Below, piece by piece: positions 11,371 through 28,235 of a stretch of DNA of 64,000 nucleotides. Below the pieces are notes generated by a model. The model worked only from the letters and a program-made list of their open reading frames with translations. It searched no databases and was not told the origin of the DNA. How positions within the stretch are numbered: the stretch's first letter is position 1; each line of letters begins with the position of its first letter. Both the position numbers and the translations under genes were made by a program. The stretch comes from Marsupella aquatica (taxonomy: Eukaryota > Plantae > Marchantiophyta): contig OZ316892.1 in NCBI GenBank assembly GCA_973895155.1, positions 8,613,580 through 8,677,579 of the forward strand. The letters are read 5' to 3'.

Positions 11371-11637
11371 ACCACCAGATGGCTCACCAGTGCAGGTCAT
11401 TTACCGGTACGCAAAGATTATCACATAGCCACCTGTTGTGCCCTTCCAAGTCATTCTATGGTCAAGTCCACCCTGGACCTTGGACAAATAAGTTTCTAAA
11501 TTTACATTTACTTTAAATAATTTTTTACTAGCAGCTCTCATAGTTACGAGTTTCTTTACGTCTAGGTTTAGGGTCTTGTGATCATATAGGCAGAGTGATA
11601 ATCTCGAAGAGGACTGAAATCACTAATCTGTGGTTAC

Positions 11638-12490
11638 TCTTTCCAAATTTCTTGAAACACCCAACTTTGATATACATACGTCTGGTAACACTTTCCAAAT
11701 TTCTTGAAACACCAAACTTTGATATACATACGTCAGTGGACAAGATTTATTACAATTACGAATTAGAAGCGAATCATAGGCAGTAATTTGTTTTCCTTCT
11801 TTCATTCTTTCATTCTTTCAAGTAGTGGTTCATTAGGCATTGGACTCTGGGTACTTTTCTCCTTTCTGTGAGTAGGGGCTAGGCATGGGACTCTGGGTAC
11901 TTTTCTCCATTCGGTGAGTAGGGGCAGGCATGGGACTCTGGGTGGCTTCAATGTGTAAACGATCACAATGGCACTCATAATCCTGTGCATGCAAATGTGT
12001 AAACCATCACAATGGCACTCATAATCCTATGATCCTTGTGGGATTATGAGTGAGTTATTAAACCCTAAACCCTAAACCCTAAACTAAACCCCTAAACCCT
12101 AAACCCTAAACCCCTACATACGTCAGTGGACAAGATTTATTACAATTACGAATTAGAAGCGAATCATAGGCAGTAATTTGTTTTCCTTCTTTCATTCTTT
12201 CAAGTAGTGGTTCATTAGGCATTGGACTCTGGGTACTTTTCTCCTTTCTGTGAGTAGGGGCTAGGCATGGGACTCTGGGTACTTTTCTCCATTCGGTGAG
12301 TAGGGGCAGGCATGGGACTCTGGGTGGCTTCAATGTGTAAACCATCACAATGGCACTCATAAGCCATAGTGCCATTGTGATCATTTACACATTTGCATGC
12401 ACAGGATACACATTATGAGTGCCATAAACCCACAAGGATTATGTGTAAATGATCACAATGGCACTCATAAACCCACAAGGATTATGGGTG
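11638..12490. repeat. Patchwork of direct and inverted duplications
   Basis: ~250-bp duplication (11725-11980 vs 12115-12362), smaller tandem units (ttccaaatttcttgaaacac.., gcatgggactctgggt), and an inverted copy (12368-12407 is the reverse complement of 11980-12018). Confidence 0.92.
12059..12116 (-). repeat. Interstitial plant-type telomeric repeat (TTTAGGG)n, ~8 units with variants
   Basis: taaaccctaaaccctaaaccctaaactaaacccctaaaccctaaaccctaaaccccta on the plus strand. Confidence 0.93.
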
Positions 12491-12977: not shown

Positions 12978-15900
12978 TCAGGTAACCTGAGTTACATTCA
13001 CTTTCGGCATCATCTTCGATGTATCCTGCAACCACGGCAGGCCAAACGAGGCACATTGCTCTAGGGAGGCTGCCCAAGGTATATCCACAATCGGCCCTAA
13101 GGTTATCCGCCAAAGATCTAACAAAATGGTAACGAGCATAGCTGCTCCCAGTGAGTCAATTGCCGTCTGACTTAGTGTCCATGGTCGTTGGGGATTCGCG
13201 TCTAGCCTGCATAAGGAACAACAAACAGGGTTAGCCCCAAAAATCACCCCTGCAACTCCTGAGACATAGAAGCCAGCATTTTAGCACACAAACAAATACA
13301 ACTTAAAAAACTCGGGATTACTGAGTGTCGAGACACTTTTTCTAGGTAAAGTAGTTTCAACCTAGGGTGAGTTTCCGGCACTCGTCATGTCCACAAAACA
13401 GAGGGGCATGCAGACAACAGATGAGTCATGCACTGGACCTCTAGGCTGAGTGAAATAAAGCAAACACCAGATGGAAATCCGCCAAGATGCCAGTGAGCTT
13501 TTTGGATATCAGCCATATCTTTGCTAGACAACAAGAAAAGAAACAGAGGTAATATCCCAGGACTGTAACTCCGTGGCTTGCTAAAACTACCAGAGGCTTG
13601 CTAAAAATGCCGTGCATAGCTGAGTTGTTGAAACTCATTCCTCACACTAAGTTTGGGAAAACTAGTCTCAAATGAGGAGTCATGTCCACATAATATTGGC
13701 GGGTAAGACAACTGAGGGAGTCATACTGAAGATCCTCTAGGCTGAGTGAAGTAAAGACGGTATATCCGGCACTCATCATGTCTACACACCATTAGCATGT
13801 AGACGACCGAGGAATCATGCCATGCATTCTCTAGGCCGAGTGAAATAAAGCACACCAGACCAAAATCTGCCAAGACGCCGGTGAGCTTTTTGGATATCGG
13901 CCATCCTAGTGACTGTTTGGAAAGAGAGCTGCTGCAAAAGTCCTCTGGAAAGGCATGACCGAAAGGAACTCTCTAATTCTTACAACCAAGATGGTGCATT
14001 ATACAATCATATCATTTTGCCCTTGCAATGGAGCATGCATTTACGGAGTTTGCACTCGGTAGAGGTGACCCACCTGTAAAACATGGGGAAACTCACGAAG
14101 AAGTAAATGGCATAGAAGAACGACCCATATTTGTACATAGCTCCCCTGTCCACCATTTCGTAGTATGGAAACTGGGCACCACATTCCATAGCACAAAGTC
14201 TTAATATAGTTCTGACCAACCGACTCTAAAAATTACAAATAAATCGCAACACTAAGAGAAAGTACCAAGAAAGTGAATGATCAACAGCTTACGTAAGCAA
14301 TTGTGACGGCCTCCACGAAGGCAGTCACGATGGACAAGACAAATATCCACACAGCTTCAATCAAAATCCTTGCAAACACACTGTGGATGTCTGAAATTGC
14401 ATGTCGGAGCCGTCGGATTGTAAAATTAGAGATCATGTGATAGAACAAGAAGTAAGAGTGTGTGAGGAGGAACGTTGTCAGGGGTACCTACAAACCACCA
14501 CACCAGTTTTCACAAAATTGAAACAATCAGCAATCTGCTTCTTCTCACTAGCAATCATGAGTGGGAAAGAGAAACTCCGGCCCATTTAGACTACCTTCTC
14601 CAGATCAATCACCGACACAGCGGAAGGACCTACTCCCTACCTTAAGGAGATGTCGGACATTTGCTGAACAATGCAAAGAGAATATCTTCTTTAAAACAAT
14701 ACAAAAGCAGGGGTACATTTATAGTTTTGAAGTCGTGAAATTCCAAATCCTCACATGATTCAGCTTATAGGACGGAAATGAGTATGTCGCACCCAGGACT
14801 GTGTAGAAGTAGTGGGTCCAGAAGTAATTTCCCACATATCCAAAAATGAATATCCACAAATTAGCCTGCACCACCCACAACGAAGCTCAATAAAACGGTC
14901 GCATTCAGGTCGCTCTTGTTAAGCCGTTCCATTCACAGAAAAACTATCGCACGGGACCACTGGACAAGTCAGGTGAAGGAGTGCGAAAGGGACTAAAATT
15001 TAAGGGTGATAGAGATGCGGATGTACCTTCACCCAGTATCGTTTGTAAAATGGCTTCTTTGCATCTTCCTACACTCCACACTGCGGCATGTCAGTCCAAA
15101 CGCTTTGTACAAGGTCCGTGCAGGTTATCATGAGTAAGACAAAAGATAATAGTTCCGTCAGAGAATTGAGGGAAACCCAGGTTAGTAGACAGGACATACC
15201 TTCCCAACGAAGAAAATGGGCAGTGTGAATGTTGGCACTGCACAAATCAGCCCTAATACCAGGTACTCCAGCTCTTGAAATTTCTGTAGGAATGACCAAC
15301 GGATATAATTGTAGAAGGCAACGTCAGTCAGACCTAAATGTCACTATCCAAGGCACGATCATGACCCCTCTGCAGTGTAAAGATACTTGACATGTTATAG
15401 ATGTTCCCACTAACCTTGGCCCCGCACATATAGGTCAACTGCAGACAACCGGCTTTCTAACTTTTCTTTAAGTTGCGTAAACTTTGAGATGTATTCTCGT
15501 GTTACGTGACTCGGATCATTGAGGCGAAGCCCTAGAGAGTCAGAAGAAAACAAGAACTTCCTGTGAGAGCAACCGAACACCGTATTTACACACGAAAGTG
15601 CAACAGGTTGCCTGAGAGACTGCTCTCGGCTGAAACCGATCCGAGTTGACGAAGTCCTACTTCAGGACACTGCGAGCAGTCTGATTCGAGAATCTATAAA
15701 TGGAAGACACACATTTCCGAAACTCCTACACATTCTGTCCGATGATGCAACCTTCTAACAACCTTGTAACAAGCTGTCTCGAAAGGGGAAAAAACAAATT
15801 GCACAATAACTTAGCAGGGGAAGAACGGGTGCCACTCTCACCTCATAGAGTTGAAGGGGGACCACGACACAAAGGCAAAGAACTATCCAGAACGGACTGT

Positions 15901-15982
15901 ACGCCAAAAAGAACAGCTCCCCCCATCTCTGGCTGAGATTAGGGGCCAGCCACGGGGCCAGCCACGGACTAGCCGGTCCCAT
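12978..15982 (-). CDS. CPI1: Cycloeucalenol cycloisomerase (cyclopropyl sterol isomerase), 7 coding exons
   Basis: Exons read WLAPNLSQRWGELFFLAYSPFWIVLCLCVVVPLQLYE / KFQELEYLVLGLICAVP / KPFYKRYWVK / ANLWIFIFGYVGNYFWTHYFYTVLGATYSFPS / VPLTTFLLTHSYFLFYH / FPYYEMVDRGAMYKYGSFFYAIYFFVSFPMF / DSLGAAMLVTILLDLWR, closely matching plant CPI1 as I recall it. Confidence 0.95.
13373..13905. repeat. Three diverged ~90-150-bp repeats inside the last CPI1 intron
   Basis: catgtc(c/t)aca...agac(a/g)ac...tcat...ctctaggc(t/c)gagtgaa(a/g)taaag at ~13386, ~13681, ~13777. Copies 1 and 3 continue with caccaga..gccaaga..gtgagctttttggatatc.gccat. Confidence 0.8.
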
Positions 15983-16549
15983 TTCCTTCTTTCCATCTGC
16001 CAGGGCATCAGAACATCACTCAACATCGAGAGCCAGAATACTGCTGACGCAGGTCTCAAACATCTCGGAAGAAACACTCCTTTCACGACAGATCCCATGA
16101 CTGGAAAGCCCAAAGAGTACCCGAGGCTACAAGACATTCGTTTACTGGGCCTGACTACGACGAACGACGAACAAGGGAGCGACAAGCTTTTCGAGTCAAG
16201 TGGAAAACGAAGATCAACACTGGAACGGCAGATATACTGTCGAAAGAGTGCACAATATACAACGGCAAGAAAGGATTCAAATGCACCCTAGCTTTCTTCG
16301 GTCTCGAGAAGAGTAATGACCTAACTCTTTGGGTTTCATTTCCACCTTCTTTGGCCCTCTCTTCTTGACGGAACTCTTCTCTTCCGCCATCGTCGATGAA
16401 CTGCAAAACCTAAACTGTTGATCTCCTCTCCACTCCTGGTCTCTCCTCAATGCCCCGGGCGCTTAGAAAAATGCCGTGCTCTCGGTGTAAAGTCCTTCAC
16501 ATTGCGTCCATTACATGTGTAGCTGCCCTGTTACAAAAGAATAGGATAA

Positions 16550-16650: not shown

Positions 16651-17059
16651 ATAATGCACATAAAAATTTGAGTGACTTTTCAGTAAGAAACAAGAAAAAG
16701 TGAATCCCTCAAATAGAAAATTCAGATTAAAAGGTCATCCAAGAAGTGGTTGTTATGGAAGGCCAAAAATATAAGTTCTTGAGTTATATTAGATTCTACT
16801 CATAGATATTTTGTTTGTAACACCATATAAGATTTTGTTATCATCTTGAGATCTTGACTAAATTTAATTGTTTTTTGTGTATGGTAAAACTATATTTAAT
16901 TTTTACTTTTATTATATTTATGGTGTTTTGTATAATCCCCTCCTCAGAAAAAGGGGTGCATTATGGAGAATTAATGCACTCAAATATACAAAGAGAAAAG
17001 TCATGAAAGGCTTTATGGGCATGGAAATGGGTGCAAAGGAGCGTATTTTTTAGGTGCAA

Positions 17060-17289
17060 ATTTTGCCAAATTACACCTCCCCAAAAAAGTGTTTTCCACT
17101 TTTGGCTAGCATTTGCTAGATTTTTTTATGTCATTTGTCACTTTTCCACCTAAGCATGAACCCCATTGGCCAGAATCCAACTCTCATCCCTAAATCTAGG
17201 GATATCTGATGGCAGGATGTAATCCATGAAAATTTGACAAAGAATCTTCCTTGCATCTTTTCCCTTAGACGAGCTGACATTGGCCACAC
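17060..17289 (+). repeat. Dispersed repeat interrupted by the retroelement; continues at 27141-27165
   Basis: Aligns with the uninterrupted diverged copy at ~27750-27990 (ccccatt.gccagaatc.aac..tcatcc.taaatctaggga.atctgat...gacatt...ac.ctggc.aaaaa). Confidence 0.8.
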
Positions 17290-17648
17290 TGTCATGCCGA
17301 GGGACAGTGCCTCTTATGCACATCGGCATGTCCCTCGCATGCCCGCTAGGTATGTAGTTAGGGCTAGTGTACTACTTGAGTTAGCGACATGTTCTTATAG
17401 CAAATGCCAAGCGTTCTTGAAGCAAATGCGCTTGTTGGTGTGACGCCAGGACTTTGTTTACTTAGGGCATGTCTTTCTTTGTGGGGTTTTCAGTTCTTCT
17501 TGAATCGCTGTTGACAGAGCTCAAACAGTGCTCGTCGGTTCCGTACACGGGATTCACACAGTGATTCGTTAGATGCTCCCGGCCGATCTTGGCATTTCAC
17601 CGGTTTTCAATTCGATTTCAGTACGCTTGTTTCTCTTACGCCTTTTAT
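17290..17648 (+). repeat. Terminal repeat A1 (359 bp)
   Basis: Matches 26606-26964 with ~11 substitutions by eye. Confidence 0.97.
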
Positions 17649-17660
17649 TCAAGAAGAACT
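17647..17660 (+). promoter_or_regulatory. Self-priming (Tf1-like) primer binding site
   Basis: attcaagaagaact at the end of A1 is the perfect 14-nt reverse complement of agttcttcttgaat at 17492-17505 inside A1. No TGG-starting tRNA-type PBS is present. Confidence 0.75.
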
Positions 17661-19387
17661 CTTGAGATAGCAGTGAGGGGAAGAAGATTGCTTGTGGCGG
17701 TTTCGATAATTTATGGTGAAATCATTGCAATTTCTTCAACGAACATCGGAGCAACGAGTTGGAAGTTGTGGGTTTATGTTGTTATGTGTATATTTAAGTG
17801 TATACACATATCAATGCTCCCGAGGAGGTCCGGATTTCATTTTCTGGTTTCATCCCCTTTGCTCCTTCTTACTGTCACGACCGCTTGCTGCCTCGACTGC
17901 TTTTGGGGTCGTTTCGCATTCCCGGCCACGGCTACCGGCGAGTTTCCCTCGACTACCGCGCGATCACCTCGCGACTACCTCCCGAGCGCATAGAGCCACG
18001 GGTCCGTTTGCTTTCGCCTTTTTCCGATCGCGACCTACTGCCACCCAATTTTTCTTCCCGGCCGTTGTTTCTTCTCGCCTTCTCGCCTTCCCTCGCAGTT
18101 ATTGTCGCGAGCTCGAACCTGCCTGTGTATACAAATACGACATTCATTAAATTACCCCTGGGCGCGCATAGGGCCGCACGCCCGCCCTTTCGAGCTTCGC
18201 TCTTCCAGTCCTCCCGCACATAGGACATTGTGCCTTGTCTTAAAGGGGGTCCCGGTTTTCTTTTGCCTCCTCCAGGCCTCGTTCCAGGCCTCAACCTTCC
18301 GCTGCCAGCATTCATAGGGGGGAGATAGAGCCGAGGCAGCAGCGCAAGGAGTGGGCACGAGGCCCTATGCTACATTAAATGGAGGGGGGAAGTACATAGA
18401 CTCCTTCCCTCAGGAGTCCTTTTGCCAGGCAGTTAGGCACGGAGGCCTATGAAGCATTAAATCAGGGGGAGGGGGAGCGAGTGCCAGGAGAGGGCACAAG
18501 GCCCTAAGCAACATTGAAGCAGGGGAGGGGAGTACACTCGACTCCTCTCATGGGAGTCTTTTGCCAGGGCACTAGGCCCAAATTGCATTAGAGGAGAGGA
18601 GGGGGGAGTTCGTAGCCCTTTTCGGGAGCACATAAGATGGGGCACAAAGCCCTATGGAGGGCTCATGCCATTAAGAGGGCCCATCATTTCTGCTCTTTCG
18701 CCTCTTCCTTTGCCACCCGACTGTCAGTGCCCGATTCTCCCTTTTTCGGCTATTTTCCACCTCTCGACGTCTTCTTTCTCCCTGCCACCGGCCTCGGTGT
18801 ATACACATACGGGAGTGCATAGGGCCGCGTGCCCTCCCTACTCCCTTCGACACTTTTTCCGGACGCGACCTGCTTCCGGCCTAGTTTTCCTCCCGGTCTC
18901 GGTGTATACACATAAGGGAGGGACCTTTCCGCCATTTTTGTTGTATTATTCCTTTTTATTTTGACCCTCTTGGGCCGGTATACACATCGGGGCCAATTTC
19001 ATTCTCTTTGGCCCTTACCTCACGCCGTTTATTTCATTTGTGGGTTTCATTTCCTAGCCTTGGGGTTGTCACTCCTTTTCTTATCAGTTTCTTTCCCATC
19101 AGCACCCCGGGTTAGCATGCAGCATGTCAGCAGAGGAGCCAAGTCGTAGCAACACATCGCCACCGACACCCAGGTACCATTTACGGAGTGATCCATGACC
19201 ATTGGTGCCAATTTCATTGGAGTCTCGGCAATTTTGACAACGTCAACAGACAACAGCAGCACCCACACCACGCAACCCTTCTGTTACATTTGGCGGTCGC
19301 TTCACCACTACCCCAAAGCCTGTTATTGTTTCTTTGCCCTTTACTCCTTTTGCATCAGTGGTTGTTCCAGCTTCACCGACATACAGC

Positions 19388-21193
19388 ATGGACGCCAGCC
19401 ACTCATCTGGCTGCATTGAACGCTTCAGTGGGCGGCCAGGCACTGTTTCTTTGCGTGAGTTCAAATCCACTTTCTACACCGTCATTTACGAATTGGAGTT
19501 GAAGTACGGCAGCAATTTCACAAATGCTTTTGCATTTAAGCAACTAGCCAGGTATGTGCACCATGAGACTTTGGATGTGTATGAGCAGCACTCTCAACGG
19601 CTGCTTGCTGTCACACAATTGCCTAACCCTGCCTATGCCAGTGCAATTGCGGCAGCATCATAATTGGCCTTACAGAATGCCATTGCAGCCCATGCTGCTG
19701 CTCCTGCCACTTCCCCTCCTACTCCACTTCCTACCACAGTGCCAGTTACTCTCATTGTCTTGGCACAGGCTACATCAGGCATTTCTCCCACCATTGATTC
19801 CCCTGCCTTTGCTGATCCAGTGGCTGAGTTTTTCCAGGTTCTTGAATTGGAATTCCCAATCAAGAGTGCTGACAAAATCATGCAGTTGGCCACCTTTGTG
19901 AGGCAGCGCGATGAAACCTTGAAGATGATGTATCGTCGGCTTCTCAAGCTGAAGGAGGACACCCAGAGCATCACTGACCTGGAAGTTGCTCATCGCTATC
20001 TTTACGCATTGGAGGGCACACCAGCTCTCCATTCGCAAGTGTTGCAGCAAGTATTCTCAGAGTTTGGAGACAGCTACACCCTGCTCAATGTCTATGACAC
20101 TGCTGAGAAACTTGAGTTGGCCCATGCACATTATGAGGCCAGTATTGCACGTCCACCGCAATCCAGGTACCAGGCTGCTGCCCCTACACTGGCCACCCCT
20201 TCCCGTGTGCCACAGTATGGTTCCAAGACCAAGCCAGCCCATGCTGCTTTCATGCTGCCATCTTGCAACTACTGTGGTAACCCCAATCACAAGGCTAATA
20301 AATGTGATATTGTTGCTGAGGACCTGTCTTGCGATTTTTGCGGGAAAGTGGGCCACTTGGAGGCAGTTTGTTTTACCAAATTCCCAGAGAGGAAGCAGCT
20401 ACGACAGCAAACCCCTCCTCCTGCTCCTACTTCCACTCCCCCACCAGCTAGGAGGGCTCCTATTGCCTCAGTTGCTCCTCCTTCCAGTGGCAAATCACCT
20501 CGTGCCACCAAATCGCCCAAGCAGCCACGGAAGCAACCAGCTCAGAAGGAGGCTCACAACGCACAGGCAACTCAACTCCAGTCTCTGACTCATGAGGTTG
20601 AGTCCCTACATGCCCAACTTGCCAACATCAAAGGCAAGTCACCTGCCTCTATTGGTCCTTCTCAACCGGCTGGTCACGTGCAACCGATCCCTGGCCCAGG
20701 CATCACTGACAATTCAGCACCTCTACCCCGCTCTTTCTATGGCTTGCCATTTGATGCTCATATGGGTGAGTGTGTGTTGTCCTCTGCTACAAAGCCTGGC
20801 CTTACAGCAGAATTTTCAGATTCATTCTGCCCTTCCTATTTTGCTTACCAACAGGCTAGTGCTGCCTCCCGTATTGCTCCCACACGCCCCATTGTACAGG
20901 CTGATGGTCTTGCTGCTGGTCCTATGACTAGAGCCAGGGGAGCTCGGGCTGTCATGCCCCAATCTTTTCAGCCACTCACACTTGCTGAAGAACGCACCTT
21001 GTTGGTGAGGGGGGATGGAGCTGCAGCTACATCCATTCCACCACCAAGTGCTGCTGACATTTCACAGGGAGTTGTTTCTCTTGAGTTGCTTGAGCATTTC
21101 ACCTCCAGTATGGCACAAAGGATTCTTACAACTCCACTTTTCAGTTGCCATGATTTACAGCTGGATGCTAGAGCTGTCCTCAAAGCGCTATAG
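19388..21193 (+). pseudogene. Retrotransposon Gag with two CCHC zinc knuckles
   Basis: MDASHSSGCIERFSGRPGTVSLREFKSTF...; CNYCGNPNHKANKC and CDFCGKVGHLEAVC; in-frame TAA at 19661 and TAG at 21191. Confidence 0.9.
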
Positions 21194-21459
21194 GGTTCAC
21201 TGCATTCTTCATCAGCCCCTGTGATACCAGTTTTGGAGGTCCAATCTCATGTACATACTGGACCTTCTTCTTCTCCTTTACATGTTTCTGGTCCTGGCTA
21301 TGTTGTTGAGTGGAAAGACCATGGACACTAACTCCCTTCACAAGGTACCTCATCATTTGCCGAGAGTGGTGCCTAGTGACAGGACTTCAGTTTCCACCAC
21401 CATTGCCATTGTTGACAACAGGAATTCAATGGTCAAGTTGGAGGGTCACACTCCTCAGG

Positions 21460-21800
21460 TGGTCATGCTAGACACAAGTGCTTAACCAGTGATATTGGGC
21501 ATTCAGTTTGCCAAGAAGATGGGACTGTTGACTGATCATTTATAGCAATCCAAGTGGCACATTCGAACTGCTAGTGGCACTGTGGAGGATGTGCTGGGTG
21601 AGAGTTCTACTTTACTCACTCTCACTTTTAATGGAGGTACAGATCAGGAACTGCATTTCCCAGTCAGATGTTTGGTTACCAATGCCACTACGTATGATGT
21701 GCTCATTGGCCAGGAGGCTTTGTTCCCACCAGGTTTTACCATTGACAACTGGCATGAGCATGCATACTACAGAGTTGATTGGCATACTGATGGCTCACAC
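21460..21800 (+). pseudogene. Retropepsin-like aspartic protease domain
   Basis: VMLDTSA*PVILG (decayed D[T/S]G motif), IRTASG flap, YDVLIGQEAL; two in-frame stops. Confidence 0.8.
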
Positions 21801-22133
21801 TTGGGCTACATTCCACTTGATTTGCATGGTGCCCATACACCTATGGCTCACCACTGTGTGTTGAAAGCAGTGCACACAGCTACCGATGTCAACCACCCAT
21901 TGTAGGATTGGATTGAGGAGGATGACGATGAGGTGGCTGCTGCACATGCTGCTGCACGTATAGCAGCACTTTCCAACAACGTGGATCATCAACCAGAGTT
22001 CGTACAACGGCTCCAAGCAGCCCATGGACTTTTGGTGGCTGCATTGCGCAAGTTTGAAGACCTTGGGCAGCACAATGGACAGCCGATAGCCCCAATCTTG
22101 AGCGCACCAGTTACATGGACTCCTGCTCCGGAT

Positions 22134-23070
22134 GGCCTTACATTGCTTGAGCTTTTTGGTGGCATTTCTATAGGCCCGGAAGCTCTCCTACAGTCCGGCA
22201 TGGTGGTGAAGCAGTACATCTACGTGGACATTGATCCAGGTGCAAGGCAAGTGGCTGAATCCCGTTTGCTGGAATTTTCAGAACGATTTCCCCAGCAGTT
22301 TCCACACAATGCATGGAAGTCTGCATTTTCTTTCTTCCCTCCAGATATCCAGCTTGTCCAGCACCGACACTTAACCCTTCTTGGTTCCCTTGATTTGATC
22401 ATAGCTGGTTGGGAATGCCAAGGGTTTTCAGCTGCTGGTCATGGTGTTGGATTGCATGACTCTTGTTCTAGCCTTTTCACAGCATTGGTTCAGATTCTCA
22501 CCTGGGCTCAATCCCTTTATCCTGCTGTTGGTTATATCATTGAGAATACTCCATCTCAGTTTGACCAGCGTCCACAGGTCAAAGAGGATTTCAGTGTGGT
22601 CCAGCACTACTTGGGACCACCCCTTCTCATTGATGCAGTGCACTGTGGTTCTTATGCACATCGTCTTCGTAACTTTTGGACTAACCTTGCACCACCTTCC
22701 TTGTTGGAGTTGGCTCTTCACCACACATCCAGGGACACTAACCTCACAGTGGACCAGATTTTGGATCCTGACAGTTCTTGCCAACCAGTTACACAGCAAG
22801 AGCCAGCATCTTGGTATCCAGCCAATACCATTGGACAGCCCCGTGCTGCTTGGCCTACATTTGTATCCTTTCCAGGTGCACATGCTTTTTAGGGTGATGG
22901 TCCTGGCCTGGTTTTTTGACATTCTACCGGTACATGGGATGAACCTAGTCCTGAGGAGAGAGAACGGGCTATGGGCTTCCAACCCGGTACTACAGGTCAC
23001 ACCAAAATCACCAGGTTGGCCAGGAATGCTTTACTTGGCAGGGTAATGGATCTCAATGCTCTCACTTGGC
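22134..23070 (+). pseudogene. DNMT3-like C5 DNA cytosine methyltransferase domain embedded in Pol
   Basis: Motifs in canonical order: I LLELFGGIS, II YVDID, III PDI, IV DLIIAGWECQGFS (catalytic Cys), VI YIIENT, VIII DAVHCGSYAHRLRNFWTNL, IX EERERAMGFQPGTT, X TRLARNALLGRVM. Same frame as PR and RT, with TAG and TGA stops at ~22890-22920. Confidence 0.92.
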
Positions 23071-23439
23071 TTCTGGTCACTTGCATCCTTTTTCAGATGT
23101 ACATTCATTCAGCATCCGGAGTTCCAGCCCTACCACTCCATGGTGCTGTTACATGGCATCCAGACCAGGTGCACTTACCTCTATTCAACACTCATCGCTT
23201 CAGTCCAAGTGTTGGGGGGGAGGATGTCCCTTGTAATGTGGCTGACATTATTTCTGAGTTTCATGGTGTGGACCAACCCAGATCAGCAGGTACAACAGGC
23301 CTTGGAGAGGCCTCATCACCTTATCAGCAGCATGCTAGCAGCTTGGACAATAGAGAGGCTAGCACTTCTGGTTCTTCAAGCATGAGTACATCAGGTCCTA
23401 TTCCTAGTGTTTCCAACTACACATTCATCATGGGCAACC

Positions 23440-24780
23440 ACCTGAGTAAAAGACAGAAGGACCAGCTGCTGAATTTGTTCCTCAAGCATGAGAATGTGTT
23501 TGCTTTCTCTATGAAGGACTTGGGTAAGTGCAAGACTATGCAGTTCTCCATTGAGTTGGCTGATGAAACACCTATCTTCAGGCGGAGACACCGTTTGAGT
23601 AAGCATGAGTGGCAACTAGTGGAGGAGAGGTGCCAAGAGCTCTATGAAGCTGGTCTTATTCAGCCATCTACATCAGATTTTGCAGCAGCTACAGTGATGC
23701 CAGCAAAGAAGGATTCCAGTGGATTGTGGACAGAGAAGCGCATGTGTGGGGACTATAGGCCATTGAACCTGGTCACACCCCAGGATAGGTACCCCATGCC
23801 GCGGCCAGAGGAGCTATTTGACAGCATTGGAGACTCAGACATCTTCACTCTTGTGGATCTAAGGCAAGGCTTCAACCAGATTTTGCTGCTTGCAAAGGAT
23901 CGCAAGAAAACAGCTTTCCATGGTAGTAACCAACTATGGGAGTGGTTGGTGATGCCATTTGGCTTGAAGAATGCGCCCATATTCTTTCAAAGAGTCATGG
24001 ACCAGGTTCTGCAAGGTGCTGAGTTTTTGAAATGCTACATTGATGATGTGTTGGTCCACAGCAAAGGATTTGACCAGCATCTACTTGACCTTGAGGAGCT
24101 ATTCATGAGGCTTAAGAAGGTGAACCTAAAGATACACCCCAAGAAGTATGAATTTGCTGTCAGATCAGTAGTATACCTTGGGCACCGCATTCTTCCAAAT
24201 GGAACCATGGCTCACCGGGCCAAAGTGGTATCCATCTTGGAAATGCCCACTCCTACTGATGTTCACACTCTTAGGAGCTTTATTGGGTTGTGCAATTACT
24301 ACCGGATCTACATCAAAGATTTCAGTACCATTGCACATCCATTGTACTCTTTGTTGAAAAAGAATGTGACTTGGACATGGAGTACAGATGCTGAGGCAGC
24401 ATTTGCCACTTTGAAGGAGAAGCTCTCAGAATACCCGGTGCTTAGAAGACCTGATTTCATTTCAGCAAGGTCTTTGTGCTACACACAGATTGGAGTACCC
24501 TTGGGATTGGTGCCATTCTGGGCCAGCATGATGAGGAAGGTAAAGAGTACGTCATTGCCTATGCATCCAGGAGCAACAATCAGGCAGAGAGTCATTATTC
24601 TTCTTATGAGGGTGAATGCCTTGCTGTTGTGTGGGCTATCATACATTATAGGCCCTACCTCTATGGGACCAGGTTTGTCCTCTACACCGACCACCAGCCC
24701 TTGAAGTGGTTGATGACCAACGACAAGCTTATTGGCAAGCTTGCTCGATGGGCGCTCATACTCATAGGCCTGGTGTGACA
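23440..24780 (+). pseudogene. Reverse transcriptase and RNase H
   Basis: RMCGDYRPLN, DLRQGFNQI, MPFGLKNAP, YIDDVLV, LRSFIGLCNYYR; RNase H HTDWS..YEGECLAV..YTDHQPL. A 5-bp duplication (atttc, 24454-24463) causes a frameshift, and there is an apparent short deletion near 24760. Confidence 0.97.
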
Positions 24781-25099
24781 CATCAAAATGCTGACACTAT
24801 GTCTCGCAGCCCTTTGATTGCCTCTAATGATTCCTCAGATGCACGGCAGGATTTTGACCAGGTTTCCATCCTGCCTACATTTCATGCATCTACCTATCTT
24901 GCTTTGCTGCCATGCTACGTTGTTGACCAACCTGTGGTGGACATATGGGAGGACAACGACACTCTGAGATTTTTGCAGCATGGGGAGTACCCCATACATG
25001 TTACTGCTGCCCAGAGAGACCGAATTCAGCAAAGGTCCAAGCGCTACTTGTGGAAGGGAGATCATCTCGTGCGCTGCTTGCCAGACAGGGAAGTGGTGG

Positions 25100-26180
25100 T
25101 TCCACCCATTCATGAGAGGGTTGGCCTTATCCGTAAGGTACATTCTGAGCTTGGTCATTTTGGTGTTAAGAGGACTTACAGCCTCTTGGTCCCTCATTAT
25201 CATTGGAGAGGCATGCATGGCCAGGTTCGAGATGTTATTGCCCGGTGTGAACAGTGTGATAGGGTGAGGACTTCTTTCACATCTCGGCAACCCACACTTC
25301 ATCCACTCCCTATTCAGGGCATGTTTTATCGCTGGTCATGTGATTTGGCTGGAGAATTACCCCTCACGTCTCGGGGTAATCTCTACATCATGATCATGAT
25401 AGAGCATTTCTCCAAGTGGATAGAACTTGTGGCATTTCCGGATAAGACCTCCCATAGCACCAGCCAGGCATTCCTACAACAAATTTTCGGCCGCTTTGGA
25501 GCTTGTGCAGAATGTCTCACTGACCAGGGCTCAGAGTTTAGAGGAGAGTTCCAGGAGCTGCTTGATCAGGCCCTCATTGATCATCGCCGGACATCACGAG
25601 ATCACCCACAGGCAGATGACTTGGCAGAGCGCATGGTTAAGACATGCAACAAGGGCCTCCGGAAGATCTGCCTCACCAAAAACAAGGAGGATTGGGACCT
25701 GGCCTTACCCTACATTGCCATGGGGTATAGGATGTCCAGACATGCATCACTGTCTAACTTTTCTCTCTACTTCTTGTTGTTTGGTCGTCACCCAGTTCCA
25801 CCTTCTGCTATTGCTGCTCACATGCTTTAGGTGGTAGACTTGGATTCAGCTGTGACTTGGTCTGATGTGATCTCTGAGAGGGCTGCCCTATTCAGGAGGG
25901 TTATGCCCATGGCCATGGAGAATTTGGCCATTGCACAGCACAGGGACACACTACGTTATGCACACACACGAGGGGGCACTTTTCAGCCCAAGGTCAGGAA
26001 GTTTGATGTGGGAGATTTTGTGTACTTGCAGCGGCAAGCTAACGACACCCTGGACACCTCTACCAGTCGTACTATTCTCAGGGTTAAAGCTATTCGACCA
26101 TCTGGAGTGCTAGAGTTACAAGGGGCAGATGGGCGCACAATTGCAGACAATGCCAAGAATTGCGCCCCTTGTCATCTGCC
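25100..26180 (+). pseudogene. DDE integrase
   Basis: HHCC (HSELGH...CEQC), catalytic WSCDLAG / LTDQGSEF / LAERMV, C-terminal VGDFVYL; TAG at 25828. Confidence 0.96.
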
Positions 26181-26235
26181 TAACCTGGATCCCACCATTA
26201 TGACTTCTACTTGGATTCCACCTGTGGACTACCCT

Positions 26236-26388
26236 TGCAAAGTGTGTTTGTGAATTGATGATGCTGACCAGATGCTGCTGTGTGACAATTGCAATGGAGG
26301 GTACCATCTTTTTTGCCTTCGGCCTGAACTTACCCAGGTGCCAGAAGGGTTATGGTTTTGCCCTTCCCGTGCTCCACGTGCTACCTGA
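26236..26388 (+). pseudogene. PHD finger at the integrase C-terminus
   Basis: CKVCL*IDDADQMLLCDNCNGGYHLFCLRPELTQVPEGLWFCPSR: C4HC3 spacing with the conserved Trp; last Cys position is Arg (cgt). In frame with the integrase. Confidence 0.9.
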
Positions 26389-26420
26389 ATTTTCTTCAGC
26401 CCTCCTTTTGGATGTGGTCT

Positions 26421-26427
26421 GGGGGGG
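26421..26427 (+). promoter_or_regulatory. Polypurine tract (G7) immediately before B1
   Basis: ggggggg directly abuts atacagagg, the first bases of B1. Confidence 0.7.
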
Positions 26428-26603
26428 ATACAGAGGTTTACACCTCCACTACGTACATACCACTTCATTTGCTTTTTCTTGGCACTTGTGAATGTGATTG
26501 GACTTTTTCTATGCATGTTGGTTGCTAGCAGCTTGCACATATGCCTTGCCGGTGACTTATATGTTTTCGATACACTATGGCTACGATACTATATGTCACG
26601 ACA
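26428..26603 (+). repeat. Repeat B1 (176 bp)
   Basis: Matches 26965-27140 with one substitution; ends tgtcacgaca. Confidence 0.97.
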
Positions 26604-26605
26604 AC

Positions 26606-26964
26606 TGTCATGCTGAGGGACAGTGCCTCTTATGCACATCGGCATGTCCCTCGCATGCCCGCTAGGTATGTAGTTAGGGCTAGTGTACTACTTGAGTTAG
26701 CGACATGTTCTTATAGCAAATGTCAGGCGTTCTTGAAGCAAACGCGCTTGTTGGTGTGACGCCAGGACTTTGTTTACTTAGGGCATGTCTTTCTTTGTGG
26801 GTTTTTCAGTTCTTCTTGAATCGCTGTTGACAGAGCTCAAACAGTGCTCGTTGGTTCCGTACTCGGGATTCACATAGTGATTCGTTAGATGCTCCCGGCC
26901 GATCTTGGCATCTCGCCGGTTTTCAATTCGATTTTAGTACGCTTGTTTCTCTTACGCCTTTTAT
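26606..26964 (+). repeat. Repeat A2 (359 bp)
   Basis: Copy of 17290-17648, separated from B1 by the dinucleotide ac. Confidence 0.97.
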
Positions 26965-27140
26965 ATACAGAGGTTTACACCTCCACTACGAACATACCAC
27001 TTCATTTGCTTTTTCTTGGCACTTGTGAATGTGATTGGACTTTTTCTATGCATGTTGGTTGCTAGCAGCTTGCACATATGCCTTGCCGGTGACTTATATG
27101 TTTTCGATACACTATGGCTACGATACTATATGTCACGACA
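26965..27140 (+). repeat. Terminal repeat B2 (176 bp)
   Basis: Copy of 26428-26603, joined directly to A2 (..ccttttat|atacagagg..). Confidence 0.97.
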
Positions 27141-27289
27141 ACACTGGCTAAAAATTAAAAAAACTTAAAAAATAAAGTGGTGTAAAGGTTAGTGTTGCAT
27201 GGTGTAAACCATGATTTACTAGCTAAATATACGTGTTTTGCACAAGATATGTACTTGAGTATATATATATATACTCTCGCCAAAGATAT

Positions 27290-27610
27290 GGATATGTAAA
27301 AGATGTAATGAAGTAAAAAGATGTTGTTATGTGAAAGATGTCGTGAAGTAAAACGATGTTGTTAAGAAAAAAGAAATCATTATGTGAAAGATGTTGTGAA
27401 GTACAATGGAGTCGTGTCGTCAAAGATGTCCTTGTGTAAAAGCCATTGTTCCACCAAAGACGGTGTTATGAAAGATGTTATTTACAACAAAGATGACGTT
27501 GTGCAACCAAAGTCTATGCGTAAAGGATGACATTCCGCAAAAGACTTCATTGTGTAAAGGATATCATTGTGTAAAAGATATTGTACATCACTCATTGCAC
27601 AGAAGATGTT
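27290..27610 (+). repeat. Degenerate aaagatgt(t/c) short-period array; reverse-complement relative at ~51690-52000
   Basis: Many aaagatgt/aaagac motifs at ~15-20-bp spacing; acatcttt motifs at 51.7-52.0 kb. Confidence 0.65.
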
Positions 27611-28235
27611 GATAGCCATTGCTAAAACTGTGGGAACATTCTATTATTTTCTGTGCAATGCACGCGTATTACAAAATAGAGAGGAGTAGACAGAAAAGAA
27701 AATCCAGAGAAAAGGATTCCAGGCCAGCATTGTTTTAGTGGCCAAAAAGTTTGCCAGATTTTGCCTCTCCAAAAGCTTACGCCACTTTTGGCAAAAAAGT
27801 GCTAGTTTTTCTCTATCTCATTAGCCACTGTCCCACCTAATCACAGACCCCATTAGCCAGAATCTAACAGTCATCCTTAAATCTAGGGAGATCTGATAGT
27901 CAGGAAAGTATTCCAGGGAAAATCAAATAAATAATATTTTGAGCATCTTCTCCTTTACGTAGTAGACATTCACAACTCTGGCAAAAAAGTAAAAACCTTA
28001 AAGTTTACACTGTTCCAGGCTACTTCCTATTCCATGCTACGTGCTGTTCATCTTGTCCCCATCCCTTTTTTTGGTATGCATTTTCACTTTCAGTTAGAGC
28101 CATCAATTAGAGTCATGGTCTAGAGTCCAGTTAGAGCCCTCAATTAGTCACGGTCTAGAGTCTTCACATTAGGCGGGAGGCCCGAGGAGTAGCTTTTGAT
28201 TTGTGCTTTATTGATTGGATTCACCACACTTGCTA

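Follow-up and report, generated by a model that had tools for sequence, protein, structure and literature searches.

Introduction

How can a retrotransposon with a retroviral-type integrase be bounded by ends that are not the ends of its own reverse-transcribed DNA? This question is raised by a Gypsy-type element of the liverwort Marsupella aquatica, which lies at positions 17290-27140 of a stretch of 64,000 nt (contig OZ316892.1, 8,613,580-8,677,579, forward strand; this whole stretch is called the window, and its numbering is used throughout). Two repeats, named A and B, surround the coding region in the order A-ORFs-B-nn-A-B, where ORFs are open reading frames and nn is a dinucleotide spacer. 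Textbook integration proceeds from the linear cDNA ends, and circles with two long terminal repeats (2-LTR circles) are regarded as dead ends or as a disputed side route of HIV. The original prediction for this locus was that cDNA with LTRs of the form B-nn-A is joined end to end and then cut by the integrase at CA^nn^TG inside one LTR. Our analysis showed that the A-ORFs-B-nn-A-B layout is real and family-wide. The integrated ends are very probably cut from an internal attachment (att) site and not from the cDNA ends. It is also probable, though with less assurance, that in this Gypsy-type family, which carries a DNMT3-type methyltransferase and a PHD finger, the cDNA ends are joined into a 2-LTR-type circle in which the DDE integrase cuts the internal CA-GC-TG.

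Structure of the locus and its target site

The repeats, the target site duplication (TSD) and the empty-site model are as follows.

17286-17289: left copy of the TSD, ACAC; 4-bp TSDs also occur in relatives
17290-17648 (+): A1, left terminal repeat, starting at the integrase end TGTCATG; 17290-17491 is the putative 3' part of U3 and 17492-17648 the putative R-U5
26428-26603 (+): B1, putative 5' part of U3, closing with degenerate 15-bp tandem units and CACGACA
26595-26612: internal att site, GTCACGACA-nn-TGTCATG, retained between families in which A and B are otherwise unalignable; spacer GC in the family, AC here
26606-26964 (+): A2, second copy of A
26960-26970 (+): A2-B2 junction, U5 end joined to U3 start; precise in the window, variable among relatives
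26965-27140 (+): B2, right terminal repeat, ending at the integrase end CACGACA
27141-27144: right copy of the TSD, ACAC
27746-27990 (+): paralogous host repeat without the insertion, the model of the empty site

Recomputation returned the predicted coordinates of A1, B1, A2 and B2, of the ends and of the ACAC TSD without change. A1 and A2 (359 bp each) differ at 11 sites, B1 and B2 (176 bp each) at one, and the spacer between B1 and A2 is AC (26604-5). The element begins with TGTCATG, ends with CACGACA and has ACAC on either side. The paralogous repeat at 27746-27990 (74% identity over 214 bp) crosses the insertion point and can be read in register with a 4-bp duplication there, which agrees with the empty site proposed earlier. 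The spacer 'ac' had also been regarded as a feature of the element, and this had to be given up, because the family spacer is GC and position 26604 is G in about 90% of the contig depth in three of four public runs. The window has AC in place of GC as a private change, and that this resembles the ACAC TSD is incidental. A 2-bp AC crossover core, as a recombinase model would have it, was rejected, since the paralogue agrees with 4 bp, GC is the spacer of the family and the TSDs vary. At 17437 and 26753 both A copies of the window have G and all contigs covering 26753 read A; this G is a private change copied into both A repeats. Among the contigs from the public runs, none bridges B1-A2-B2 of the window locus itself, and the single contig at the right flank has 26 letters on the B side, which is under the bridging threshold. 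Run X5 gave one partial contig. Among the 13 public runs listed as containing the sequence there is no RNA run, which says nothing about expression.

Repeat layout in relatives

Relatives were collected from short-read metagenome assemblies with an integrase alignment, and the best 80 of 530 confirmed loci (66-79% identity) were analysed; att arrays were first located with a fixed-length pattern. Relatives from named organisms are those of Calypogeia fissa (76-82% identity), Klebsormidium nitens and Riccia sorocarpa, which would by themselves point to a bryophyte host. Mapping of A and B gave B-nn-A-B at 36 of the 80 loci, a single B followed by flanking DNA at 26, and was uninformative at 18. 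The 36 loci hold 37 arrays, and 32 distinct arrays of this second family are left once five duplicates of the same insertions are dropped. The left end is visible at 23 loci, and not one of these has a copy of B ahead of A1; neither ordinary paired LTRs, the finding that the original prediction said would speak against it, nor the mirror form A-B-nn-A-ORFs-B thus occurs among them. One locus, L021, is ambiguous, having GC and no B ahead of A1, and its flanks (TAGC and ACTC) form no TSD.

As predicted, independent copies have the same ends and the same B-nn-A array and carry different 4-bp TSDs. Among 13 full copies with both ends, eight have exact 4-bp TSDs, all of them different, three have TSDs with one transition, one has two transitions and one has none. 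The corresponding numbers for seven copies of the form A-ORFs-B are four exact, two with one mismatch and one without a TSD, and a solo A-B unit with an exact CAAT TSD (L061:6131-6609) is the analogue of a solo LTR. The att motif and the boundary between the polypurine tract (PPT) and ATACA are common to the window and the second family, while the rest of A and B is unalignable. A third family (about 50% integrase identity) is represented by locus L082, which reads PPT-B-GC-A-B-flank. In three of four runs, from two studies, contigs of the window's own family carry many unrelated flanks, which end exactly before 26606 (13, 14 and 8 contigs) or exactly after 26603 (8, 10 and 8); one of these runs may be the source sample of the window. 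The spacers of the 32 second-family arrays are AC (11), GC (9), GT (5), AT (4), AA (2) and TC (1), mostly as deamination of methylated GC would give.

The same insertion has the form A-ORFs-B in the assembly of L031 and the full form in that of L046, and the B1 copies of L008 and L010, again one insertion, differ by one 15-bp unit; these differences reflect either deletion polymorphism or assembly collapse. B ends with two or three CG-rich tandem units of 15 bp (..CGTCACGACA) in the window (26561-26603) and in L001-L079, and these units could be repeats to which the integrase binds and could be methylated by the methylase that the element encodes. An integrase cut at the penultimate unit was considered for L037, L075, L052 and L061 and rejected, slippage or assembly being simpler: units are also lost in B1 (6 arrays), and the unit counts of L008 and L010 differ. 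One copy (L025:313-5518) is apparently nested in the integrase gene of another family member.

The scan of viral contigs gave no relative. The prokaryote scan gave three loci, L081, L082 and L083 (the last with 34% identity over 1 kb), of which L081 and L082 were used. Both are contigs of a plant- or alga-type retroelement within a prokaryote genome record labelled as a cyanobacterium, likely as eukaryotic contamination, and L081, a collapsed copy that was assembled as a circle, has two long open frames. Members of the P0004 and P0057 clusters, which are plant integrases, are annotated in metagenomes as 'transposase InsO family protein' or 'ribosomal protein L37AE/L43A'.

Self-priming and the ends of reverse transcription

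Three features mark the predicted start and end points of cDNA synthesis.

17492-17505 (+): predicted 5' end of the transcript and self-primer AGTTCTTCTTGAAT, the exact reverse complement of 17647-17660
17649-17660 (+): putative self-priming primer-binding site (PBS), 12 nt, directly after A1
26421-26427 (+): G7 polypurine tract; the PPT-B boundary is conserved in all three families

The G7 tract ahead of B1 is present as predicted. The 14-nt perfect match between self-primer and PBS straddles the end of A1, and none of 5000 shuffles reached 12 nt (longest 11). The pair of the second family (AGTTTTTCTAGAATT / AATTCTAGAAAAACT) differs from that of the window by two compensatory changes, and a TATA-like TATAAAAGG lies about 30 nt upstream of its self-primer. 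The third family has a wholly different pair (ATCTTTGTCAAGT / ACTTGACAAAGAT), again with a TATA-like box about 30 nt upstream. Because a self-priming PBS follows A1 and the PPT precedes B1, the LTR defined by reverse transcription would be B-GC-A, as had been proposed in the form B-nn-A, and the primer/PBS pair covarying across three families, which is a new observation, fixes these predicted limits. The ends of B-GC-A (ATACA.. and ..TTAT) are not of the integrase type; the TG..CA ends lie inside U3. Self-priming of this kind has been described for Tf1/Sushi and Tcn1 (PMC6317226). A tRNA primer was no longer considered after the self-complementary pair had come to light.

The A-B junction and homogenisation of the repeats

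The junction between A2 and B2 had been interpreted as the joint of two cDNA ends, and its variation agrees with this. Half of the 32 distinct arrays (16) are precise, six lack the shared AT, two lack 1 nt, five have 1 extra nt, which is the first PBS base in three of the five, and three are otherwise altered. The control junctions stay in register: the att spacer has 2 nt in 32/32 arrays, and the PPT-B1 and A1-PBS boundaries are unchanged in 32/32 and 22/22. On the tree, which is weakly resolved, the junction classes require 16 changes, no fewer than shuffled labels (mean 14.9), and are unclustered. The A2 end of L073 is intact, and after it come 134 nt of the DNA that precedes the PPT, the PPT itself and B2; joining U5 to a left cDNA end primed too far upstream would give this structure. 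The L073 insert has diverged by 17.9% from its source, as compared with 16.8% between A1 and A2. Such junction spectra resemble those of retroviral 2-LTR junctions, and we infer that the A-B junction is made anew in each cycle and looks like joined cDNA ends.

In each segment, A1 and A2 of one element, and likewise B1 and B2, resemble each other more than the repeats of other elements (permutation p 0.0002-0.016 for 13 elements). The U5 half of A and the first half of B are no exception, and there are no A1-type or B2-type clades. This full-segment homogenisation fits LTR-type copying and not the partial exchange of DIRS-type copying.

Coding capacity and surroundings

The coding region of the window copy contains the following parts.

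19388-21274 (+): gag, with a weak CCHC zinc knuckle at about 20261-20308; interrupted by stops
21300-21900 (+): aspartic protease region, by homology to the intact relative P0121; interrupted by stops
22130-23080 (+): C5 cytosine methyltransferase, DNMT3-like, catalytic Cys retained in GWECQG; interrupted by stops; the 3' limit is approximate, being set by what we take to be DNMT3 motifs IX/X
23400-24763 (+): Ty3/Gypsy-type reverse transcriptase (RT) and RNase H; frameshifted
24787-26250 (+): integrase with H2C2 finger, D186-D246-E282 (D,D35E; residues counted from 24787), GRHP motif and C-terminal extension; one internal stop
26254-26388 (+): PHD finger at the C-terminus of the integrase, in frame in intact relatives

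Pfam matches in the window are the weak CCHC knuckle, C5 DNA methylase, RT, RNase H, H2C2 and rve integrase and the PHD finger. The methylase match (PF00145, E 2e-5) has DNMT3A/B/C as its best, weak PDB matches (E about 1e-3), and Ty3 RT is the best solved-structure relative of the RT (E 1.6e-47). The methylase and the PHD finger were missing from the original account of the domains. The order protease-RT-RNase H-integrase in Pol, the Gypsy-type RT and the HHCC and D,D(35)E integrase are those of Ty3/Gypsy elements, and the D,D35E integrase is conserved. A Dnmt3-type methylase lies within Pol in 22 of 24 relatives examined. Its position differs: the order is protease-DNMT-RT in the window, L081 and P0121, and RNase H-DNMT-integrase in P0132 and P0135. 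The Pfam search of the window and L081 gave no chromodomain match, a PHD finger being there instead. Because there are nine internal stops and three frame breaks along its coding path, the window copy is dead. The element had been described as having an HHCC-DDE integrase and no visible tyrosine recombinase, and both statements stand: the D186-D246-E282 triad was found, and no recombinase match was obtained in 33 reading frames of the window (part of the 48 listed frames of at least 80 aa and a few from outside that list) or in the two long ORFs of the intact L081.

The element sits in a dispersed host repeat (16821-17267), where 31 contigs of run X3 have loose ends at position 17015, and on its other side lies a degenerate 35-bp tandem array (27282-27441). 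Elsewhere in the window, a cluster of near-identical direct repeats (184 and 88 bp) occurs at 11631-12488 with a 40-bp inverted pair 348 bp apart, and a reading frame at 15755-16015 (-), without a Pfam match, presumably resembles an exon of a sterol cyclopropyl isomerase gene.

Proposed mechanism and rival explanations

In the proposed cycle, transcription would start at about 17492 and end in A2 (step 1). The first 12 nt of the transcript most likely pair with the PBS after A1 and prime the minus strand in the manner of Tf1, and plus-strand priming at the G7 tract would then give a linear (B-GC-A)-internal-(B-GC-A) DNA whose ends lack TG..CA (step 2). The U5 end would be joined afresh to the U3 start in each cycle, giving the A-B junction (step 3), and the integrase would cut the att site of the upstream LTR behind each CA, discard the 2-nt spacer and insert the DNA (step 4). 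The product, A-ORFs-B-nn-A-B with variable 4-bp TSDs (step 5), is what is observed. Joined ends and a cut at the upstream-LTR att would thus reproduce the order of the repeats, the dropped dinucleotide and the TSD together. The upstream att may be preferred because it becomes double-stranded first, after second-strand transfer, which is a guess; marking of one att site by the DNMT was also considered. Copies of the form A-ORFs-B and solo A-B units could be products of deletion between repeats, of collapse in the assembly or of cuts at both att sites. The wider proposal is that this is an old lineage, extending from charophyte algae to liverworts and mosses, in which a covalently closed 2-LTR circle is the obligate precursor and the integrase, disregarding the cDNA ends, cuts a palindromic att in U3 with the upstream copy chosen; we give this proposal an even chance. 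The proposed cut has precedents. HIV-1 and spumavirus integrases cut palindromic 2-LTR junctions (PMC4372172), and DDE enzymes of the IS2/IS3 type insert from minicircle junctions with a spacer of 1-2 bp (PMC3299598).

Several observations weigh against this mechanism. The closed circle and its cleavage are predictions from sequence. A symmetric circle with two equal att sites predicts the mirror product, for which the count is 0/23. Mirror forms might be lost more rapidly through A x A deletion, single-B copies being common and at least one of them, L031, being identical as an insertion to the full copy L046. The tree used for the junction classes is star-like (good support for 7 of 29 branches), and the class that lacks 2 nt could be imitated by slippage at AT after insertion. 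In the window copy, the primer:PBS helix is the optimal fold as long as no more than 10 nt beyond the PBS are included, and a downstream helix beats it by 4-12 kcal/mol once at least 20 further bases are folded; six other copies gave primer:PBS probabilities of 0.87-0.98, these copies having been picked for good matches. No canonical TATA box is visible in the window family. The short-read assemblies also show single insertions in two forms, and the fixed-length pattern bears on which arrays were found. From the original prediction, the internal att, the shared ends and a junction like joined cDNA ends have been retained, whereas the closed 2-LTR circle is a hypothesis. The asymmetry means either that the upstream att is used first or that a linear precursor is extended at one end by a jump of the RT.

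This last process forms an alternative without a closed circle, which we regard as possible and rather unlikely. After copying A at the right end, the RT would jump over the 2-nt AT overlap to the start of B and extend that end only, giving a linear B-A-internal-B-A-B(-A). The integrase would then pair two att sites, the first and third giving the full form, the first and second A-ORFs-B, and the second and third a solo A-B. Clamping and template jumping of RTs over 2-nt overlaps are known from the HIV and Tf1 literature. Steps 1, 2 and 5 and the internal att are common to this pathway and the joining of cDNA ends. All three predicted products occur, the missing mirror form needs no extra assumption, and the AT overlap is seen in the junction class that lacks 2 nt and at the L073 insert. 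However, there is no evident reason why only the right end should be extended, precise blunt joins are the commonest junction class (16/32), and A-ORFs-B is secondary in at least one case, L031 being the same insertion as L046.

Split repeats also suggest copying as in DIRS, PAT or Ngaro elements, in which an RNA running from inside A1 to inside B2 would have its tips restored by template switches to A2 and B1 and the A2-B2 junction would be inherited from the RNA. The repeat layout is as in PAT/Ngaro (PMC4157794; PMC5890265, figure legend). Such copying should, however, leave the 3' half of A and the 5' half of B without homogenisation and pass junction variants on from copy to copy. Neither prediction holds, and the conserved PBS after A1 and PPT before B1 would be useless to such copying; we consider it very improbable. 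More doubtful still is recombination between the B-nn-A junction of a circle and the target by a tyrosine recombinase encoded here or in trans. Retroelements with such an enzyme typically have split direct repeats (PMC4157794), and the AC spacer matches the flanking ACAC, at the window locus only. The scanned frames of the window and L081 lack a recombinase match, the D,D35E integrase is conserved, and the 4-bp TSDs are unrelated to the spacer, which is GC in the family. Finally, the locus could be a one-off rearrangement, an autointegration or a misassembly of an ordinary LTR element, since no long read spans B1-A2-B2 of the window and assemblies vary at these repeats (L031/L046). This explanation, which the original prediction had raised against itself, is the least credible one, being contradicted by the 32 distinct arrays of the second family, the array of the third, the tens of independent flanks that adjoin the two ends in the window's own family and the independent report of the layout in K. 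nitens (PMC5890265, figure legend).

If the obligate closed circle is true, these elements would show in nature what the discarded Panganiban-Temin model proposed, and they would have arrived at the split repeats of PAT/Ngaro by a route of their own. The retroviral circle model of Panganiban and Temin (1984) was later displaced by results on linear DNA (reviewed in PMC11054761). A family that always inserts from an internal junction would make joined-end DNA directly testable as the normal substrate of a retroviral-type integrase. The DIRS-like repeats of Gypsy-DNMT3 elements, so far unexplained, would get an explanation, and split repeats are seen not to be diagnostic of tyrosine-recombinase elements. 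LTR finders that require paired terminal repeats would likely miss or mislabel such elements in bryophyte and algal genomes.

Comparison with known systems

The layout had been presented as possibly undescribed, and this is not so. De Mendoza et al. (2018) stated in the legend of Fig. 4c that KnitGypsy-Dnmt3 of Klebsormidium nitens has DIRS-like repeats (A-coding-B-A-B) together with Gypsy domains (PMC5890265), and like the window element it has a Dnmt3-type methylase in Pol. The Discussion of that paper and a term search of its three supplementary files gave no att site, TSD, priming mode, integration mechanism or land-plant copies, and in the searched literature the name KnitGypsy-Dnmt3 was found only there. 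A preprint of 2026 mentions streptophyte Gypsy-DNMT3 elements, in the part seen without their repeat structure. For Gypsy-DNMT3 elements, the open literature (as distinct from Repbase, Dfam, subscription journals and the supplements of preprints) yielded no account of an internal att, of self-priming or of integration from joined ends. The integrase-PHD protein P0007 of K. nitens has 54-56% identity to that of the window and is not tied to the named KnitGypsy-Dnmt3. What is new here is the covarying self-primer/PBS, the private nature of the 'ac', the imprecise A2-B2 junction with one PPT-retaining copy, and the homogenisation within copies.

The window element resembles Ty3/Gypsy elements, especially Tf1/Sushi and Tcn1 (PMC6317226), in its RT-RNase H-integrase order, D,D35E integrase, PPT, self-priming PBS, 4-bp TSD and TG..CA ends. 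In contrast to canonical Ty3/Gypsy elements, its integrated ends are not the ends of the LTR defined by reverse transcription, two complete LTRs at the integrated ends are found at 0/23 loci with a visible left end, and the repeats are split with an extra A-B; unlike Tf1/Sushi and Tcn1, it has a PHD finger instead of a chromodomain, plus the DNMT. The element thus copies like Gypsy and is structurally not a canonical Gypsy element. With PAT, TOC, Ngaro and VIPER (PMC4157794) it has the A1-ORFs-B1-A2-B2 split direct repeats in common, whereas it differs from them in the DDE integrase, the PBS and PPT, the variable 4-bp TSDs and the homogenisation of all segments, no tyrosine recombinase having been found.

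The cleavage proposed here from sequence resembles that of HIV-1 and spumavirus 2-LTR junctions (PMC4372172), where a DDE integrase acts on a palindromic CA-nn-TG in covalently continuous DNA. Retroviruses have their att at the circle junction, and their use of this route is marginal or disputed. The att of the window family is located within U3, away from the joined cDNA ends, and none of the loci with a visible left end holds a copy with ordinary LTR ends. The IS2/IS3 elements (PMC3299598) likewise insert with a DDE enzyme from abutted ends with a 1-2 bp spacer and make a TSD; their transposase makes the junction from donor DNA, whereas the att junction of the window family would be inherited inside the LTR and copied by reverse transcription. 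In structure, the window element is a land-plant member of the barely described Gypsy-DNMT3 kind, and in mechanism it is an unexplained variant of LTR retrotransposition.

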